Source of the DNA: an uncultured Spirochaetota bacterium
GTDB taxonomy: Bacteria > Spirochaetota > Brevinematia > Brevinematales > JAOACQ01
DNA length: 64,000 nucleotides
NCBI GenBank assembly: GCA_963835575.1
Contig: CAWIGG010000002.1
Coordinates: 1,600,001-1,664,000 of the forward strand
Reading direction: 5' to 3'
Shown: in pieces, positions 20,026 to 48,952 of the stretch
How positions within the stretch are numbered: position 1 is the stretch's first letter
Layout: each line of letters starts with the position of its first letter
The notes under the pieces: model-generated
Database searches by the model: none
What the model saw: only the letters and a program-made list of their open reading frames with translations
Told to the model about the DNA's origin: nothing
Translations under genes and position numbers: made by a program

Positions 20026-21033
20026 TCAAGCCTTATTATTTTTCAAATAATAAAACACTTTTACTACTAACTTCCTGGCAATCGCAACGATTGCTTTTTG
20101 CTTGCAGGTTCTGCTTCTTAAGTCATCGTAGTATTTCCGCATATAAGGGTCGAATCTTACCGCTGCCCACGCGGCCTGTACTATCACTCTTAATATAGCT
20201 TTATCTGTATTCCTTGTAATGTGCCCGCCACGGTTTTTCTCATCACTTTCATTGACTTTGGGCGCCAATCCGAGATATGACACCAGTTTTTTATGGCTGT
20301 CAAAACGCTCAATATTTTCTATCTTCGATACCAGATATGCGCCGCACGTTTTACCTATCCCGTCAATCTCTTTCGTAATGGTCTGGTATGCCTTATCAGT
20401 TGCGCAAAGCCCGAAAATCTGATCGTCCAGTTCTTTTATCATCTCATTATATTCTATAACCAATTGGTATTGTCTCTTAATCCCTTCTTTGAGCGCTGGA
20501 GAAAGAACAAGACCTTCCAACCAGGCTTCATCTCTTTTCTGTCCCATAAACAGCTTTTTTTCAGGAGCAAGTCCCCAATAATCCAGCATCGCTATAATCA
20601 GGTTCTTAGTCTCTACTTTCTGCCGAACCAGCTTTTCTCTTATCTTCAATAGCCCTTTTACTTCCGCCCATTTCTCGCTTTTGACCAGACAGTAAGACAA
20701 TTCTTCTTTTTCAAACCGTCGCAATATGATTGCGATTTTTTCCGCGTCTACACGGTCTGTCTTCTTGGTCTTATCCATCAAACTTTTAAGTTCAATGGTG
20801 TTTAGGATTAACACATCTTTTGCCAACCGTTCTGCTTTTTTGGCCAAGTCCCATGTCTAGGTCGTTGATTCCACGCCCATCACTGTGTCTTTGTCAATTT
20901 CATTCAAGAAATCCGAAACTCCTGCCGAATTTCTTTCATAGCGTTTGACTTCCTTTTGACCTGTCTCTAAAATAATGCAGACAGTCATTTGTTTTTTGTG
21001 GATGTCAACGCCGACCCACTTTTTTGCTTCCAT
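20026..21033 (-). pseudogene. IS110-family recombinase with an in-frame amber stop
   Basis: ATG 21033 gives MEAKKWVGVDIHK...GVESTT*TWDLAKK (TAG at 20857-20859, codon 59). The same frame continues with KTDRVDA, GIG and YLGLAP...ES. Confidence 0.9.
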
Positions 21034-41070: not shown

Positions 41071-42453
41071 TTATTTTTGAAAATATTTCTTTAAATATTC
41101 AGGCAATTCACTGACTGCGCCCCTGTCCTGTTTCATCGTATCGCGGTCCCGGATTGTCACAGTATCAAGCAATTCAGGATGCTCGCTTTTTCCAATGGTG
41201 TCAAAGTCCACTGTAATGCAGAGAGGCGTCCCGACTTCATCATGCCGGCGATAGCTTTTACCGATGTTGCCGCTGTCCTCATAAAAAATACGTCCGATCC
41301 CGAGCTTCATCAAATTATCTTTTATGGCCCTGGCTTTTTCAACAATGGCCGGGTTATTACGCGCCAGAGGAATGACCGCCACTTTGATCGGCGACAGATG
41401 CGGTTTTAATTTCAGCACAACCCTCTGCGTCCCGTTTTCCAGATCTTCCTCGGTATAGGCTTCGGTCAAAACGGCCAGAACTCCCCTGTCCACACCTGCC
41501 GACGGCTCAATGACAAATGGAACAACCGGTTTCTGTGTATCCGGGTCGGGTATTGTCAGTTTGGCGATTGAATCTTCATTTGGTTCAACCCTTGCCTTAA
41601 GACCGAGTTCAGACTGGCTTTTAGAATGCGAGCCCAGATCAAAATCCGTCCGGTTTGCCACTCCTTCCAGTTCTTCAATGCCATGGGGAAAGCGGTAAAG
41701 AATATCCACCGTCGCCTTCGAATAATGCGCCAATTCCTCAGGCTTTTGATAGTACAGCTGCAGGTTATCGCTGGTCAACCCCTGATCCTGCCACCATTTG
41801 ACCCGCGCGTCCACCCAGTTTTTATGGTATTCATCATCCGTTCCGGGCTTCACAAAGTATTCCAGCTCCATCTGCTCAAACTCACGGACCCTGAAAACAA
41901 AATTCCTCGGCGTTATCTCATTGCGGAACGCTTTTCCTATCTGGGCGATTCCGAACGGCAGCCTCCGCGATGTGGAGTCCACGACATTTTTAAAATTGCA
42001 GAATATGCCCTGGGCTGTTTCCGGCCTCAGGTAGGCATAATTCTCATCGTCCGCCACTGGGCCAACCGTCGTTTTGAACATTAAATTAAAAGGCCGCGGC
42101 TCAGTCAGGTCTTTAGAACCGCATTTTTCACAGCGCCCGTTCTTGACCTGGTCCGCCCTCCACCGGCTTTTGCAGTTCCGGCAATCAACCATGGGATCGA
42201 CAAAAGTCGCTTCATGACCGGAGTGCTTGAGTACAAAGCGATGGGTCAGAATAGCGGCGTCCAGTCCTTCCACATCATCCCTGTCATAAACCATCGCGCG
42301 CCACCATGACGCTTTTAAATTATTTTTCAGCTCAACGCCCAGAGGGCCGTAATCATAAATGCCCTGCAAACCGCCGTATATATCTGAGCCGGGAAATATA
42401 AAACCGCGCCTTTTACAGAGCGCTACTAATGAATCCATTGTTTTTGCCGGCAA
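41071..42453 (-). CDS. glyQS: Glycine--tRNA ligase, alpha2 type
   Basis: [35 protein letters not shown] and VIEPSAG motifs. TTG start after AGGAGG. Confidence 0.95.
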
Positions 42454-42959
42454 GGGAATCCTCCTAACATTTCCAAAAACTGAAGGTTTTTGGAAATGAC
42501 TCAATTATAAATTTTTTTGGATAATTGTAATTCTGCTGCCGCTGAGAGTCCGCAAAATAAAATAAGTTTTAATTCTTGTTAAACTTTCGAACCAGGCGAA
42601 CTCAGCGGCTGCATGATTCGATACAATGGCTCTTATTTTACAGCATATCATCTGTTTTTGCAAAAAGAATTGGTATTATATTATTGGAAATTAAATTACA
42701 GGAAGGCACGAAGCGATGCACTGAGCGAAAGCCGAAGTGACGAGAAGGTTAAAATTTGAAATTAAATGTTTTCATACAACTCTAATATTAATTTATATTA
42801 TAATATTTTTTACAATTTAAAATTCACTTTTGAAATCAAATATATTTTGACATATATTGATTTATTTTTTAATTATGAAGATTTATTTACTCAAAACTTC
42901 GTGTCTTCCCGTCTTGTAAGCTATATTTTGGAGAAAAAGTTTACAAAAAATAATTCTTC

Positions 42960-43140
42960 AGTAGAATACCTCCTTGTGGAAGTTGTTGCTCACTACCCGC
43001 CTGCCTTCTGGTTTGAAACCAAGGCACACAGGAAGATTGCCAACTCCACAAGGACCGTTTTGGTCTCTTAAAACAATTGCCAGGATATTCCCTTGAATAA
43101 TCCTGTCGCTCATTACAAGGGTGCCGAAATGGAACGGTCT
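42960..43140 (+). ncRNA. Bridge RNA with target-binding and donor-binding loops
   Basis: Stem CCTTGTGGA..TCCACAAGG encloses guides CTACCCGCCT and CACAGGAAGA. Stem GACCGTT..AACGGTC encloses guides TAAAACAAT and TTACAAG. Confidence 0.85.
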
Positions 43141-43157
43141 GATATTTTAATCTGCTG

Positions 43158-44832
43158 TTGCCTGTCGGTTTTTATAACATGCTTCATGGACATACGGCAG
43201 GGTTCCCGTTAAAATAAAACGGGAGAAAAAGATGGCAAGATTTGAAAAGAACAGCCTGGAGCAGGGTGAGTTCCTCGCGATCAATATAGGCGAGCAGTTT
43301 GATGAGAATTCCAGAGAATTTATACTAAAAGAATTCATCAAAAACCGTATTAAACTGGAGGATTTCGCGGCTTACTATAAGAACGACCATAGAGGCAGAG
43401 AGATTAAAAATCCTCGGGATGTGATCTGTGCGGTACTCTACGGTTACATTACGGGAAATCGTATCAGCCGAAAGATAGAAGATTTGCTGAAAAAACACAT
43501 TGGGTTTATGTATGTTTCAAACCGGCTGAAAATTGACCATTCGGTAATTTGCGAGTTCAAGGTACTTTTTCAGGAAAAGATCGAGGAGTTGTTCAGCCAG
43601 CTTTTATATATACTCAACGAAATGGGGTCTATAGATTGGGACATGGTAGTGGGTGACGGCACAAAGATCAAGGCCTACGCGAGTAAGAATAAGAATGTGG
43701 GAAAGAAACATACCCGGAAGCTGATGGACACTTACCAGAAGATGGCGGAAAAGATTGTGAAACAAGACCTGGAACTGGAAGAATCTTACCGGGAAGGCAA
43801 GCTGGAGCAGCCTTATTACGAAGCGGAGAAGAAGCGGGTATCAAGGCGGAAAAAGATTTACGATAGTGTTTTGAACCAAATCGATGAATACAAAAAACAG
43901 GTAGAGAGAGGGGAAAAGACAGACGAAGAATTCACCAACCTGACTGATCCCGAAAGCAAGCTGATGTCTGGAAATCCGCATAGTGTGTTTATACAGGGAT
44001 ATAATTCGGCGATGATGGTCAGTAATAATGATGTGATTATAGATTTTGAAGCAATCACAACACCGGAAAAACAGCATACGGAAGAAATGGTAAAGAGGGT
44101 GGAACAGAAAAAAGCGGAATTAAAAGTTGATAAGGCTAGCAAATACCTTTTTGATTCGGGTTTTCAGGACATGGAAGAGACAATCCGGATGGTGGAGGAA
44201 GGAAAAGACCTTTATGTGGATACGAAAGAGCGGGATTTCAGTGATAAATCACAGAAGCGAAGAGACTTTAAACTGGAAAAGATTGATGACGAATATATCC
44301 TGGGATGCCGGGGCGGCCGTAAGGAAAATGGGTATTTAGATCGAAATAACCAAAGATATACATTTTTGTATTCACGGAAGGGCTGTGAAAGATGTCCATT
44401 TTTCAGTGAGTGTTATAAAAACATCAAACCGAAAACACAGCAAAAGACAGTAATTTTCAGTGAGTTTGAATTGAATAATCGGTCTAAGATTGATGCTTAT
44501 TTAACAAAACTTTACAGCGAAGAAGGGCAAAAGATATACAACCGCAGGATAGGTAAAGAACACGTATTTTCAAACATCAAAACACAGAAGGGTTATGTTC
44601 AGACAGTTTACAGAGGTCAACGGAAAGTGAATTTGGAGCTATGCTGGGTATCCCTTGCGCATAATTTTATGAAATATGCCCAATATTTGAGAAAATAGAG
44701 AGGATTTTGTATAGTCTGAGTATCGATTATTCGAAATTTATTATTAAAATCAGCTAAGCTGACAAAATTTTTATTTGCCCGCTTATTGTAAGGGGCTGGT
44801 TTGACTCCGAAAATGAAATAACCGACAGGCAA
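43158..44832 (+). mobile_element. IS1182-family insertion sequence nested in the IS110 left end
   Basis: IRs TTGCCTGTCGGTT / AACCGACAGGCAA and 4-bp duplication GCTG (43154-43157, 44833-44836). Confidence 0.88.
43232..44698 (+). CDS. IS1182-family transposase
   Basis: SRKIE, DHSVI..F, DGTKIKA.AS, TDPES, QGYN, FDSGF and EHVFSNIK motifs. Confidence 0.9.
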   Translation: MARFEKNSLEQGEFLAINIGEQFDENSREFILKEFIKNRIKLEDFAAYYKNDHRGREIKNPRDVICAVLYGYITGNRISRKIEDLLKKHIGFMYVSNRLKIDHSVICEFKVLFQEKIEELFSQLLYILNEMGSIDWDMVVGDGTKIKAYASKNKNVGKKHTRKLMDTYQKMAEKIVKQDLELEESYREGKLEQPYYEAEKKRVSRRKKIYDSVLNQIDEYKKQVERGEKTDEEFTNLTDPESKLMSGNPHSVFIQGYNSAMMVSNNDVIIDFEAITTPEKQHTEEMVKRVEQKKAELKVDKASKYLFDSGFQDMEETIRMVEEGKDLYVDTKERDFSDKSQKRRDFKLEKIDDEYILGCRGGRKENGYLDRNNQRYTFLYSRKGCERCPFFSECYKNIKPKTQQKTVIFSEFELNNRSKIDAYLTKLYSEEGQKIYNRRIGKEHVFSNIKTQKGYVQTVYRGQRKVNLELCWVSLAHNFMKYAQYLRK

Positions 44833-44845
44833 GCTGGAGGAAAAA

Positions 44846-46120
44846 ATGCTAATCCGGGATGCTATCGGGATTGATCCCGATTCACAACAGTATGTGTGTA
44901 TGTATGTCAAAGCGGAAGACTGGAAAACGGAACGGAAAGCCTTTCCGGTTACCACAAGCGGCCTTGATAATCTGATCGAATGGACTCGGTCGAAAAATGA
45001 CCCGATTATCGCCATCGAGGGAAGCAACGGGCAGAGTAAGCCCTTAGAGAAAGTGCTTCGTAAGGAATCGATGACCTATTACTCGTTTAAAGCAAGGGAT
45101 GTTGAACAAAAGAGGAAAAGCCAGCTCCCGGCGGGAAAGAACAACGAAAAGGATGCTCATGCCGCCGCTCTTTTGGCTTTAGAGCGTGAAATGAACGGTT
45201 CTCTGGAAAAATGGAGAAGGGTCTATCCTGTTGACAGCGAATTACAGACGATAACCCGGAAATATGAAAGTGTAAGCGGCAGGATCACAGAGGAAATATC
45301 CGGGCTGTGGAAGCTTTTATGCGAGGCTTCCCCGGATGTTTACCTGTTCTTAAGCGGCAAGAATATGGAGACGGATAACAGACATAATGTTTTGAATAGC
45401 GCAGGAGTACTGAATTTGCTGTGTAATTGTCCCGATTTAAGCCAATGGAGGAGATTAAGTGCGGAGAAAATGAAAGAGCTGATGGGTGGAGGCTCTTATA
45501 GAGGCCGGGATAAGACCATCGCCGGCTTACAGGTAATAGCCCAAAGAATCTTGGGTGTAGCGGGCCCCATTTCCATGATGATCCGGCAATCTGCTGAAAA
45601 TATTATTCTTTTGAAAGGCCATAAGGAAGAAATGAAGAAGATTTTGGATAATCTGGCTGAATCCAGGGAAGCTGTCCGGGTTTTAGCCTATGACGAATCC
45701 AATGGCAATGGGTTGAAAGGAATCGGCGTGATCACTGCCTCTACGATGATAGCCGAGATTATTCATATCAATCGTTTTGTTAAAGAGGACAGCCTGGCGT
45801 TATATGCGGGATTCGGTATGGTGGAAGATGAAACCGGAAAGAAAAATAGGGGTGAAAGAAAGAAGATGAAACATACTCACGATTATAACCGCCGTTTGAA
45901 AAACGCCTTTATGAACGCGGCCAAGAACTTTGTTCACTGGAATCCGGACCACCATATTTCCGGCATGCACAGGAATTTGATAAAAAATGGAATGAGCAGG
46001 CTCGAAGCGAATAAAAGGGTTGCCAGAGCATTAGTCCGTAAGATATTTCGGATATTAAAGGACTATGAGTCTGAAAATATAAGGAAAATGGAAGAAAACG
46101 GGGTGGCAAAAGTGGGTTAG
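44846..46120 (+). CDS. IS110-family recombinase (variant catalytic residues)
   Basis: IGID, IAIEG, KNNEKDA, KGIG.ITA...IAEI..I.RF...LALYAG, N.RLKNAF and RVARALVR motifs. Confidence 0.9.
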   Translation: MLIRDAIGIDPDSQQYVCMYVKAEDWKTERKAFPVTTSGLDNLIEWTRSKNDPIIAIEGSNGQSKPLEKVLRKESMTYYSFKARDVEQKRKSQLPAGKNNEKDAHAAALLALEREMNGSLEKWRRVYPVDSELQTITRKYESVSGRITEEISGLWKLLCEASPDVYLFLSGKNMETDNRHNVLNSAGVLNLLCNCPDLSQWRRLSAEKMKELMGGGSYRGRDKTIAGLQVIAQRILGVAGPISMMIRQSAENIILLKGHKEEMKKILDNLAESREAVRVLAYDESNGNGLKGIGVITASTMIAEIIHINRFVKEDSLALYAGFGMVEDETGKKNRGERKKMKHTHDYNRRLKNAFMNAAKNFVHWNPDHHISGMHRNLIKNGMSRLEANKRVARALVRKIFRILKDYESENIRKMEENGVAKVG

Positions 46121-46256
46121 AAACCCTGCGGAAATATTCCGCGAGCAACACCTCCATTTTCTTCCGCCTTTATTATATCGAACTACTGAGGTTTTTTAAA
46201 TATTTTGATTGTTTTTTTCTTGACTTAACTAAAACAATCTTCCTGTAAAATCATTA

Positions 46257-47048
46257 TTATGCAACGCAGGACATGACTGTTTTAGCGCGGTCTGACAATT
46301 TAGTCAGCCTGTTTATTTCTGATTCCATCATGATATCGCCGATCTGTTTTTTAGAAAGGATATACAATTCCTCAAACCTGAGGGCTTCGTTCAACGCGCT
46401 TTCATTTGTCAGCATGACATCACGGGGCAATACAACCTTCCTTGTTTCAATGCAGTCAATATTTTTTGATACAGCCGGATTCTTTAAGAAGTAGTCTATA
46501 CTGACAGCGCTGATGCTGCCTCCGACTGTAAATGAAAATCCTTCCATTTTGGACCTTTTGCCGACATATCCGATCAGGTCCATTAAAAATTGGGAATCGG
46601 GGGTAATGGCACTGTCCATAAAGGAGGCGCTTAAATCCGTTCTGCCCAGCGTGATATTGTCGAGCATCCCCTTACCCATCAGTAAAATCTCTTCCAGCTG
46701 GCCAATGGAATTTTTTGTTTCAATATTAATTGATAATTTTATTTTGTGGTCTTTATAAATACTTTTATAGGCATCCAGGAATTTTTTAAGCCCGAATTTA
46801 CTTTCCACCATCGGAGAGATGAGTCCGTCAACGCCGATTTCAAGCGAATCCTTGATATCCCTGAGGGCTTCAACTCCGCCGATTTTGAGATAAAGCTTTG
46901 TTCCCGCTTGAGTTGTCAGCCTTCTTAAGCGTACAAGATCATTAAAAGAGGAACCTTCGGCTTCAAATTCGGCTTTGACAGCATCCAGATGGAACGTTTC
47001 TTTAAGCAGAAGGATTTGTTCATAAATCTCTTTTTCTATTCCAAACAT
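46257..47048 (-). CDS. HpcH/HpaI aldolase / citrate lyase-like protein
   Basis: KAEFEAEG, KIGG.EA, PMVES, NIET and GRTDLS motifs. Confidence 0.8.
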   Translation of the reverse strand: MFGIEKEIYEQILLLKETFHLDAVKAEFEAEGSSFNDLVRLRRLTTQAGTKLYLKIGGVEALRDIKDSLEIGVDGLISPMVESKFGLKKFLDAYKSIYKDHKIKLSINIETKNSIGQLEEILLMGKGMLDNITLGRTDLSASFMDSAITPDSQFLMDLIGYVGKRSKMEGFSFTVGGSISAVSIDYFLKNPAVSKNIDCIETRKVVLPRDVMLTNESALNEALRFEELYILSKKQIGDIMMESEINRLTKLSDRAKTVMSCVA

Positions 47049-47186: not shown

Positions 47187-48952
47187 GGCCCTGCTGAAAA
47201 AATTCAAACACAAGCATAGGGGATATTCCGGCAAATTTTCAACCGCACAAGGAAAAAGATTAAGAAATCAAAGGCCATGTCGGCGGCAGCCTTCGATTTA
47301 TCAGCCAAATAGCCCCGATATCTCTTGAAATTAATCCCGATTCCCCTTAAAAGCATGCGGGTTTTGACTTTTACCAGACCACGGAACAAAATCCTGCCGC
47401 TCAAATACTTTGGTTTCAATAAACTCATCAATCCTTCTACGGCAGGGCGTAGTCCCATCAGAAATTTTCCTGCATCCATACATATCAATTCCAAAAATTC
47501 ATCCATCCATTCCCTTTTGGCGTCTATTACCAGCCGACTTTGCTTCTTGCCGACACAGGCCAGACAATTTTCTTTCTTATCGCAGGCGGCACATTTTTTT
47601 ACATCAAAATTCAATACCACGGAACCATCTTCATTTTCAATAATGCTATTCGGGATTTCTCCCGCCGGACACATCCCATATTTGCCGGTTTTTGGGTCTG
47701 TATACTCAGAAAGTTTCGCTTTGTTTTTTATCCCTTCCAGATCGACGCCGCGTATCGCGCTCATTACCAGTTGAACGTCTTCGCCGCTCTCATTCCGAAG
47801 GTCTTCAGAATTATAACCGCCATCGCTTATCGCTGTTTCAATATTCGTTTCCTTTTTTAAATTAGATAGTTGCCTGCGGAATAAATCCCCATCGTCAGCA
47901 TTATTCGATGCGGTTTCTATGCTGGTAATCACCTGCATCGGATTTTGAGGGTCACAGGTTTCAACCGCGTTCACCTTATACCCGACATACTGTTTTCCCC
48001 GCTTCTCCCGGTAGGTCGCGTCTTCGTCCACCGGCGACTGCATCGATGAGGCTTTGATTTCCCGCGGCAGCTTCAGCGTCACCTTGCCTTCTTTTTCTAT
48101 CCGGCATTGTTCCCGCAAAAGTCTCATTGCCTGCCGGAAACTCTTTTGTTTCCTGACTTTATTGTGAAACACGTTCTCTGTAATCAGCCCGAATATTTCC
48201 TCGCCAATTTCCACCGTTTTCGATTCGTAATTCTCCTTTTTCAGTCGATAACTGAATCCGTCCTCATTTTGTTTTAGAAAATCCTTACATCTTTCACTTA
48301 AGGAAAATCCAGCATTGGAAACATCTTCCGCCATATTGGACAACACTTTATGAAACAGCATAACCCGATTCAGCCGCTTGATATTGGCCCCAATCATTAC
48401 AGAATCTGTCCTCTGCAGTCCGGTTTTGATCCCGACCTCTCCAATTAAAAGATCCCGAAACTCATCAAATATAACGTCAAAAAGCCCGTCCTGATTCTCC
48501 GCCACAGCGGCACGAAAATAGTATAACGTCCTGATCGACATCTGCTGCGCGTTGATGTCTTCCAATCCCAGCGCGTATCGAAACGATAAATCATATCGAT
48601 ACCGCTCAAACAACTGTTCATCGGTCAGAGAGAATAGCTCTTTCATGATTTCCAGCCCGGCTAATATGTTGACCGGGAAATTACTCCTACCAAGTTTTGG
48701 GTCATATAGTGGAGCAAACTTCCGCTCATTTATTTTTGAGAAAACTTTCTGGTAAAAAAGCCCGGCCCAGCTTTCATTTAAACTTTCTCTCATTTCCTGG
48801 TTCATTTCATATCTTACCGGATATAAATCCTGTTCTATATGTCTCTGATTCAGCTTGAACATTTTGACCTCTCTCTGATTCATGTGCATATATTATAACG
48901 AGTTATGCAACTTTTGTACATGAATCGGTAGGATTGTTTTTGCAGTAGGGCC
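47187..48952 (-). mobile_element. DDE insertion sequence (IS5/IS1182-related; family uncertain)
   Basis: IRs GGCCCT(G/A)CTG(A/C)AAAAA (14/16) and 6-bp duplication ATTTAT. Confidence 0.9.
47204..48862 (-). CDS. DDE transposase
   Basis: LTDEQL..F..ALG, RTDS, DATYREK, SDGGY, C..C....C and R.AVEG motifs. Confidence 0.88.
   Translation of the reverse strand: MFKLNQRHIEQDLYPVRYEMNQEMRESLNESWAGLFYQKVFSKINERKFAPLYDPKLGRSNFPVNILAGLEIMKELFSLTDEQLFERYRYDLSFRYALGLEDINAQQMSIRTLYYFRAAVAENQDGLFDVIFDEFRDLLIGEVGIKTGLQRTDSVMIGANIKRLNRVMLFHKVLSNMAEDVSNAGFSLSERCKDFLKQNEDGFSYRLKKENYESKTVEIGEEIFGLITENVFHNKVRKQKSFRQAMRLLREQCRIEKEGKVTLKLPREIKASSMQSPVDEDATYREKRGKQYVGYKVNAVETCDPQNPMQVITSIETASNNADDGDLFRRQLSNLKKETNIETAISDGGYNSEDLRNESGEDVQLVMSAIRGVDLEGIKNKAKLSEYTDPKTGKYGMCPAGEIPNSIIENEDGSVVLNFDVKKCAACDKKENCLACVGKKQSRLVIDAKREWMDEFLELICMDAGKFLMGLRPAVEGLMSLLKPKYLSGRILFRGLVKVKTRMLLRGIGINFKRYRGYLADKSKAAADMAFDFLIFFLVRLKICRNIPYACV

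Follow-up and report, generated by a model that had tools for sequence, protein, structure and literature searches.

An IS110-group insertion sequence with a predicted bridge RNA and a divergent recombinase in an uncultured Spirochaetota bacterium

The window analyzed here is a 64,000-nt stretch of DNA from an uncultured Spirochaetota bacterium (assembly GCA_963835575.1, contig CAWIGG010000002.1, positions 1,600,001 to 1,664,000), and all coordinates are window positions on the + strand unless stated otherwise. From 42915 (TGTAAGC...) to 46240 (...TAAAACAATCT) it contains an IS110-type insertion sequence (IS) with a CT core and a span of 3326 bp. Two long + strand frames lie inside this element, at 43232-44698 (488 aa) and 44846-46120 (424 aa). 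The second encodes an IS110-type recombinase and has its ribosome-binding site (RBS), GGAGG, at 44836-44840, while the first belongs to another mobile element that is nested in the IS110 element. The bridge RNA is encoded in the non-coding left end, which measures 243 nt up to the insertion point of the nested element (42915-43157) and is 100% identical at six genomic places. The right end (46121-46240, 120 nt) carries a predicted -35 box TTGACT at 46220-46225, the left donor TAAAACAAT at 46230-46238 and the core CT at 46239-46240. We conclude with high confidence that 42915-46240 is one of six copies of an IS110-group IS in which the bridge RNA encoded in the left end selects the insertion site.

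All six genomic copies have the same orientation; the sequence next to their left end is cTTCC[CT]G[CT]-CT, and TCCTGT follows their right end. In the window, the left target (LT) is CTTCCCGT in host DNA at 42905-42912, directly left of the core CT of the left junction (42913-42914), and the right target is TCCTGT(A), also host DNA, at 46241-46247. In 6/6 copies CT stands at the left junction and also forms the final two bases of the element, which has no terminal inverted repeats. Because the six copies share these flanks, the element boundaries are independently confirmed, and the same flanks show the target and donor joins around a CT core that an earlier reading of the sequence (hereafter the original prediction) had proposed. 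Four of the six copies have an uninterrupted basal form of 1647 bp, and the contigs of three metagenome runs likewise skip exactly the 1679 bases that are absent from this form. For the metagenome comparison, contigs of four runs were placed on the element; all 14 public runs consist of DNA metagenome contigs. The six copies vary at 4 of 1647 positions while occupying different sites, which indicates that the enzyme was active recently. One metagenome run also contains a variant of the element with 21 differing letters over ~1635 bases, which is uninterrupted and lies behind a (CTTCCCGT)n array. This variant has at least two different right flanks and therefore reveals further insertion sites in another population.

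The left end is predicted to fold at -98.3 kcal/mol compared to -73.7 ± 5.1 kcal/mol in shuffled sequences (z = -4.86; 0/100 shuffles equal). It forms two stem-loops with large internal loops, the 5' sides of which copy the target and the donor while the 3' sides complement them. The target-binding loop (TBL) spans 42971-43053 with the basal stem CCTTGTGG/CCACAAGG, and the donor-binding loop (DBL) spans 43055-43137 with the basal stem CCGUUUU/GGAACGG and an inner hairpin; both are conserved and show compensatory changes, those of the TBL stem being seen across 59 sequences of relatives. In the TBL, the left target guide (LTG) CTACCCGCCT at 42993-43002 reads the core with its last two bases, and matches left target plus core at 8/10 positions in the window copy and at 9/10 in the C6 copy, the range over the six copies being 8/10 to 9/10. 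The opposite side (43028-43039) holds the right target guide (RTG) ACAGGA, the core guide AG and the extension ATTG, which together are complementary at 12/12 positions to CAAT-CT-TCCTGT across the right junction (46235-46246). In the DBL, the left donor guide (LDG) TAAAACAAT at 43069-43077 is identical (9/9) to the 9 nt that precede the core in the right end (46230-46238). The right donor guide (RDG) at 43113-43121 consists of TTACA, the core guide AG and GG, of which TTACAAG matches the reverse complement of CT+TGTAA at 7/7 positions. The C in front of the core, in the LTG as well as in CTTCCCGC-type targets, is complementary to G43120, the base after the RDG core guide.

All guide strings named in the original prediction are present where it placed them, including CTACCCGCCT at 42993-43002, CACAGGAAGA at 43027-43036, TAAAACAAT at 43069-43077 and TTACAAG at 43113-43119. 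It had also described an apparently long right target guide. The long match is real (12/12), but it is composed of a 6-nt guide (ACAGGA), the core guide AG and AUUG, and since AUUG is complementary to the left donor and not to the target, we read it as a handshake-type extension.

Chance levels were estimated from 20000 mononucleotide shuffles of the 243-nt left end. The 9-mer donor match was obtained in 55 shuffles, the 7-mer in 472 and both donor guides together in 1, and a 12/12 complement to the right junction also appeared in 1 of 20000. A match of at least 8/10 to left target plus core was reached by 1473 of 20000 shuffles, and this match is therefore weak on its own. This speaks for a rival reading in which the stem-loops are only a cis-acting leader or a recombinase-binding site, with the protein alone choosing the target and the matches reflecting conserved ends and a repeated target. 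The donor-side guides are also nearly invariant across the clade (TAAAACANN and [TC]TACAAG), and by themselves they show conservation, not covariation. The 12/12 match of RTG, core guide and extension argues against this explanation, as does the protein, which has the fold of the RNA-guided IS621 and ISCro4 enzymes. The relatives of the element provide a further argument, as follows.

A word-indexed search found 215 homologues of the recombinase at E ≤ 0.001, the nearest with 80, 59 and 58% identity and the rest with at most 48%. Among 1.84 billion, 265 representative clusters matched at E ≤ 0.001, 49 of them at E ≤ 1e-30. Reference genomes contributed 19 loci (13 with Spirochaet- names), and 80 of 189 matching metagenome loci were kept. 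The RNA scaffold was found by strict sequence anchors in 67/100 sources, and several of the 33 failures are due to a cut-off contig or a diverged loop. The consensus structure of 59 distinct sequences has 32 pairs, 11 of which show compensatory changes, and in a 12-sequence seed such changes are seen in 13/32 pairs.

Within this conserved scaffold the target loops are hypervariable, while the donor guides are nearly fixed. The variable segments follow the flanks of their own element. At the best alignment, the LTG matches its own 8-nt left flank at a mean of 5.84/8 positions compared to 4.14 for foreign flanks (45 pairs), and the RTG matches its own right flank at a mean of 5.5/7 compared to 3.45 (14 pairs). 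Permutations reaching the observed LTG or RTG match numbered 0 of 5000, a test that overstates independence because the relatives are kin and many of them share similar targets. In single relatives the agreement between guide and flank is complete, with 12/12 in L033 and 10/10 in both L015 and L069. The donor side changes in concert as well, as relatives with the RDG CTACAAG have element starts TGTAG. Furthermore, 23/53 distinct bridge RNAs show complementarity between LTG(-1) and the first handshake base of loop 2, a level reached by 21/10000 shuffles. That hypervariable segments track their own flanks makes a mere leader or binding site very improbable. The conserved scaffold, the hypervariable target loops and the covariation of guides and flanks thus uphold the IS621-type bridge-RNA logic that was originally proposed.

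The recombinase contains both domains expected of the family, with PF01548 (RuvC-like) at residues 7-161 (49.8 bits, cut-off 29) and PF02371 (Tnp) at residues 290-368 (49.3 bits, cut-off 21.3). A PDB search with the single recombinase sequence gave no match, and a clade profile retrieved IS621 (E 6.7e-12), ISCro4 (E 2.8e-7) and TasR. An AlphaFold2 (AF2) model was obtained with a predicted local distance difference test score (pLDDT) of 87.6 and a predicted template-modelling score (pTM) of 0.75. Its ten best Foldseek matches are IS621 and ISCro4 chains (E 2.1e-10 to 2.0e-9; identity 14-16%; template-modelling score up to 0.51 on target length), followed further down by Nop5-type proteins and RuvC.

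Several observations weigh against the bridge-RNA reading, in addition to the kinship of the relatives mentioned above. The LTG has A where all six occupied targets have T, and a genome search found no site that matches the LTG perfectly. The LDG is followed by TG, which is invariant in relatives, and not by CT, so that the core is read contiguously by three guides (LTG CT, RTG AG, RDG AG) and not by four. Rfam (E up to 1) gave 0 matches over 42000-47000. In the contigs of the four metagenome runs, circle junctions and empty sites, both named beforehand as checks, were not seen. At the protein level, the NCBIfam model NF033542 ('IS110 family RNA-guided transposase') scores 102.2 bits, below its cut-off of 140. 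The DEDD tetrad is incomplete, as Asn100 stands at the position of IS621 D102, and the position of the Ser nucleophile is not Ser, as Thr330-Gly331 is aligned to IS621 S241-G242. The divergence claimed for the recombinase was therefore understated, considering the missing single-sequence match in the PDB, the NCBIfam score and the fact that two of the five IS621 catalytic positions differ.

Residue equivalences to IS621 were taken from a HMMER alignment, in which IS621 D11, E60 and D105 correspond to D10, E58 and D103. The two substitutions recur throughout the clade. Among 120 homologues, N100 and G331 are found in 120/120 and D12 (in GIDPD) in 118/120, while position 330 is Thr in 116 and Ser in 4. 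As these four exceptions are all Ser, the hydroxyl is always kept. Of 51 full-length representatives, the 31 nearest have Asn in 31/31, Thr in 29 and Asp12 in 27. The 20 more distant ones have Asp at the third DEDD position in 20/20 and Asp12 in 0, with Ser in 15 and Thr in 5. The clade also has ~65 extra residues between the two domains. Three further IS110-family proteins encoded in this genome have KTDxxDA, with SG at the nucleophile position in two and SD in the third. One IS110-family frame of another lineage (L115) lies in the window itself at ~20028-20849 on the - strand (273 aa; Transposase_20 match at 20128-20373). It has the canonical KTDxxDA, an apparently truncated N-terminus and ESD in place of SG.

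In IS621, D102 hydrogen-bonds G242 and shapes the Ser loop without binding metal, and alanine substitutions at D102 and S241 abolish activity (PMC11208158). Asn could keep a hydrogen bond of the D102 type and Thr would keep the hydroxyl, and thus the covalent protein-DNA link is probably made by Thr330. The roles proposed here for Thr330, Asn100 and Asp12 are predictions from alignment. The loss of IS621 activity upon substitution of D102 and S241 (PMC11208158), together with the near-uniform N100 and T330 of the homologues, would also suit a clade that is catalytically unlike IS621, using another residue or hydrolysis, or genomic copies that are no longer active. However, six near-identical copies at different sites indicate recent activity, the exceptions at position 330 are all Ser next to an invariant G331, and the Gly after the Ser that D102 contacts in IS621 (PMC11208158) could be contacted by Asn too. 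We therefore regard a different catalysis, or inactive copies, as unlikely. A literature search for IS110 enzymes with Thr as nucleophile or with the Asn substitution gave nothing relevant, although the supplementary tables of IS110 surveys, which the search did not cover, may list such cases. The word 'threonine' is absent from PMC11208158 and bioRxiv 10.1101/2024.06.21.599552.

We lean with modest confidence towards the view that the element represents a separate branch of bridge recombinases that is active in nature and occurs mostly in Spirochaetota and sediment metagenomes. Its nucleophile would be Thr330, forming a 5'-phosphothreonine link, and its RuvC tetrad would be rewired, with Asn replacing the third Asp and with Asp12, which is specific to the clade, placed two residues behind the first. 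Its bridge RNA would have a longer RTG, a 4-nt handshake extension, an LDG that does not read the core, and its own promoter besides the junction promoter.

Joining of the element ends brings TTGACT (46220-46225) to a distance of 17 nt from TAAGCT (42917-42922), and the boxes given in the original prediction are thus present in the sequence. The spacing between the candidate -35 box and the element end is constant in 17/17 readable right ends (TTGAC in 16, TTGAT in 1), and an A-run precedes the box. The predicted -10 half TAAGCT has counterparts in relatives, which start TGTAAGAT, TGTAGGAT or TGTAAGTT at the same place. TTGACT-17-TAAGCT is a putative junction promoter, which fits the promoter that IS621 is described to rebuild across its joined ends (PMC11208160). 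A second promoter-like site, TTTACA-16-TAGAAT at 42940-42967, matches 10/12 positions in a consensus scan and ends 3 nt before the TBL stem. A TTGAC-type box scoring at least 8/12 is found at the equivalent place in 31/54 distinct relatives, with poor -10 parts. Weak RNA expression has been reported from integrated IS621 loci (PMC13626964), and the internal site could similarly give low RNA expression from integrated copies. Reading TGTAAGCT as an extended -10 was ruled out, as its TG abuts the hexamer.

Two further features of the left end were observed. The T-run TATTTTA (43139-43149) directly follows the DBL basal stem and recurs in many relatives as CTATTTT or CATTTT; it could be the RNA 3' end or an attenuator before the recombinase gene. 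In most relatives (L014-L111) the element start and the RNA lie ~90 nt further apart. This extra stretch is G-rich (e.g., GAGGGGG..GGGGGAGACTAA) and often follows ATGGCGGCGGTAA, and it is absent from the window element and from its 80% and 59% relatives (L033, L018).

By analogy with IS621, the element would excise as a circle in which the joined right and left ends create both the donor site and the promoter TTGACT-17-TAAGCT. RNA and recombinase would then be made, and a recombinase tetramer would hold two DNAs, the target bound to loop 1 and the circle junction to loop 2. Strand cleavage next to CT would proceed via a covalent protein-DNA link and be followed by strand exchange, with the AUUG after the RTG pairing with the incoming donor strand as a handshake. 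The promoter-like site upstream of the RNA may sustain low expression from integrated copies.

The original prediction had treated 42905-46247 as one system. This holds for the ends, the RNA and the recombinase, but these parts are not contiguous, as a nested IS1182-family element of 1675 bp (43158-44832, + strand) between the RNA and the recombinase gene had been overlooked. It is bounded by 16-nt inverted repeats that are 94% complementary (TTGCCTGTCGGTTTTT at 43158-43173 and AATAACCGACAGGCAA at 44817-44832) and by a 4-bp duplication, GCTG, at 43154-43157 and 44833-44836. The 488-aa transposase encoded at 43232-44698 (+ strand) matches Pfam DUF772, DDE_Tnp_1_6 and DDE_Tnp_1 over their cut-offs, and scores 213 bits with the NCBIfam IS1182 model, below the cut-off of 270. 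With 24 full-length copies of ~100% identity and one fragment in the genome, this IS1182-family element is very active. A perfect 4-bp duplication flanks 16/24 copies, in seven of them GCTG, and the sites usually consist of a T-rich stretch followed by GCTG or GATG and then by an A-rich stretch. The flanks of several copies do not match each other and are met again at other places, which points to either recombination between copies or insertion into another repeat. A different IS1182-type transposase frame (47204-48889, - strand, 561 aa, DUF772 and DDE_Tnp_1_6) lies ~1 kb right of the IS110 element.

When the nested element is removed, ...TATTTTAATCTGCTG joins GAGGAAAAAATG, so that the recombinase RBS and start codon follow immediately upon the non-coding left end. 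In the window copy, the RNA, the two element ends and the recombinase frame have all remained intact. Since the insert lies between the RNA and the RBS, the recombinase gene is uncoupled from both predicted left-end promoters. Recombinase for the window copy probably comes from read-through out of the nested element or from the four uninterrupted copies.

There are two such composite copies, the window copy and C5:162689-166014, whose inserts are identical and agree in insertion base, orientation and GCTG duplication. That two of six copies carry identical inserts at one base while their host flanks differ could mean that the 3326-bp composite is itself mobile, the nested element having been acquired once and carried as cargo to a second site by bridge recombination. 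IS110 elements with cargo have been reported (bioRxiv 10.64898/2026.08.14.744561). However, the composites belong to different single-nucleotide polymorphism (SNP) haplotypes of the IS110 element (45384 A/G, 45460 T/C), each of which includes uninterrupted members; the G/C state is also that of the metagenome variants. In addition, the nested element, with its 24 copies, has a marked site preference that the insertion spot fits, and two independent hits or gene conversion would need fewer steps. Transposition of the composite thus appears less plausible, though still a reading with some weight, and we favor with fair confidence that the preferred site was hit twice independently or that gene conversion took place between the copies.

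The occupied target motif of all six copies is CTTCCCGY-CT-TCCTGT. The joined motif CTTCCCGYCTTCCTGT has 16 further perfect sites in the genome, all unoccupied, and 61 genomic sites lie within at most 2 substitutions of CTTCCCGCCTTCCTGT. The predicted reaction partners are the target CTTCCCGCCTTCCTGT and the donor junction TAAAACAATCTTGTAA. The octamer CTTCNNGY forms short tandem arrays scattered over the genome (116 arrays of at least 2 units compared to 18 in a reversed-sequence control), and the target motif is the outer end of such arrays. In the window, such array and target stretches lie at 42698-42750 (+ strand ACAGGAAG...) and at 42897-42914 / 46241-46246. The gene right of the element is found with 70-73% identity in 4/4 other genomes of the same genus, with different surroundings. 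No octamer motif occurs in the 420 nt inspected at five loci, and because the neighborhood differs and the motif is missing there, these genomes provide no readable empty allele. A larger repeat family around the target was excluded, as BLAST of 42600-42905 against the genome returned itself and two short matches.

For arrays on the GGAAG strand, the upstream crude open reading frame is co-oriented in 53/71 intergenic cases. Array pairs less than 700 nt apart have the geometry ACAGGAAG...spacer...CTTCCTGT in 8/8 cases and the opposite geometry in 0. The spacers measure 77-456 nt, and A+T reaches 68-74% in seven of the eight spans compared to 58% in the genome. A 5'-truncated relic of the element (C2:1329628-1330118, L013) has 86% identity to the last 490 nt. 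Its right end is the same (TTGACTTAAC TAAAACAATCT), its right flank differs (CTGTGG...), and it has no bridge RNA anchors left.

Bridge recombinases are under development as programmable tools for DNA insertion, deletion and inversion. To our knowledge, few orthologues have been characterized (IS621, IS622 and ISCro4), all of them close to one another. Seen simply as a bridge-RNA element, the element described here is an expected family member. It is also a natural, recently active system in which the genome sequence directly reveals the four guides, the core, the target and the donor, and its enzyme is ~15% identical to IS621 and differs at two of the five residues that are essential there. 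If Thr is indeed the nucleophile, the known chemistry of this enzyme class would be widened, and the clade would offer a ready test case for the contact requirements of the D102/S241 loop. The locus is also a further case of an IS110 element with its sites in a short intergenic repeat, and of an insertion sequence hit more than once by another at a single position.

The closest known system is IS621 of E. coli (PMC11208160, PMC11208158; PDB entries 8wt6-8wt9). Both elements have a CT core without terminal inverted repeats, an RNA in the left end upstream of the recombinase gene, and two stem-loops with LTG/RTG and LDG/RDG on the 5'/3' sides of internal loops. The predicted junction promoter has its -35 box in the right end and its -10 box in the left end, the arrangement described for IS621. 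Both elements use a repeated intergenic motif as target, and on the 3' sides of the loops their core guides are followed by handshake bases. The left donor has A-T as its last bases in front of the core, like the dA6/dT7 of IS621 (PMC11208158), and both proteins fold as a RuvC-like domain followed by a coiled coil and a Tnp domain.

The differences from IS621 concern both protein and RNA. In the fold alignment the recombinases share ~15% identity, and the present one has 424 aa compared to 326 aa, with ~65 extra residues between the domains. It has Asn100 for D102, Thr330 for S241 and an extra Asp12 (GIDPD). The RTG extends 6 nt beyond the core compared to 2 in wild-type IS621, although longer RTGs have already been reported for other IS110 orthologues (PMC11208160). 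The handshake extension is 4 nt (AUUG), whereas the handshake guide of IS621 is two bases (PMC11208158). The LDG lacks a following core guide, whereas all four guides read the core in IS621 (PMC11208160). Also unlike IS621, the RNA begins 57 nt inside the left end, with a promoter-like site of its own.

ISCro4 (PDB 9t56) is the second-best solved relative by both profile (E 2.8e-7) and fold, and the title of its entry names the same complex parts (DBL, TBL, tDNA and dDNA). It shares ~14% identity with the present recombinase and has the canonical Ser at the position aligned to Thr330. Bridge RNAs are predicted by covariance models in 85.7% of catalogued IS110s (PMC11208160). Elements of the IS1111 group, with their seekRNAs, have the same recombinase domains and an RNA guide. 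Their RNA lies in a long right end and they have subterminal inverted repeats (PMC11208160), whereas here the RNA lies in the left end, which at 252 nt without the insert is longer than the 120-nt right end.

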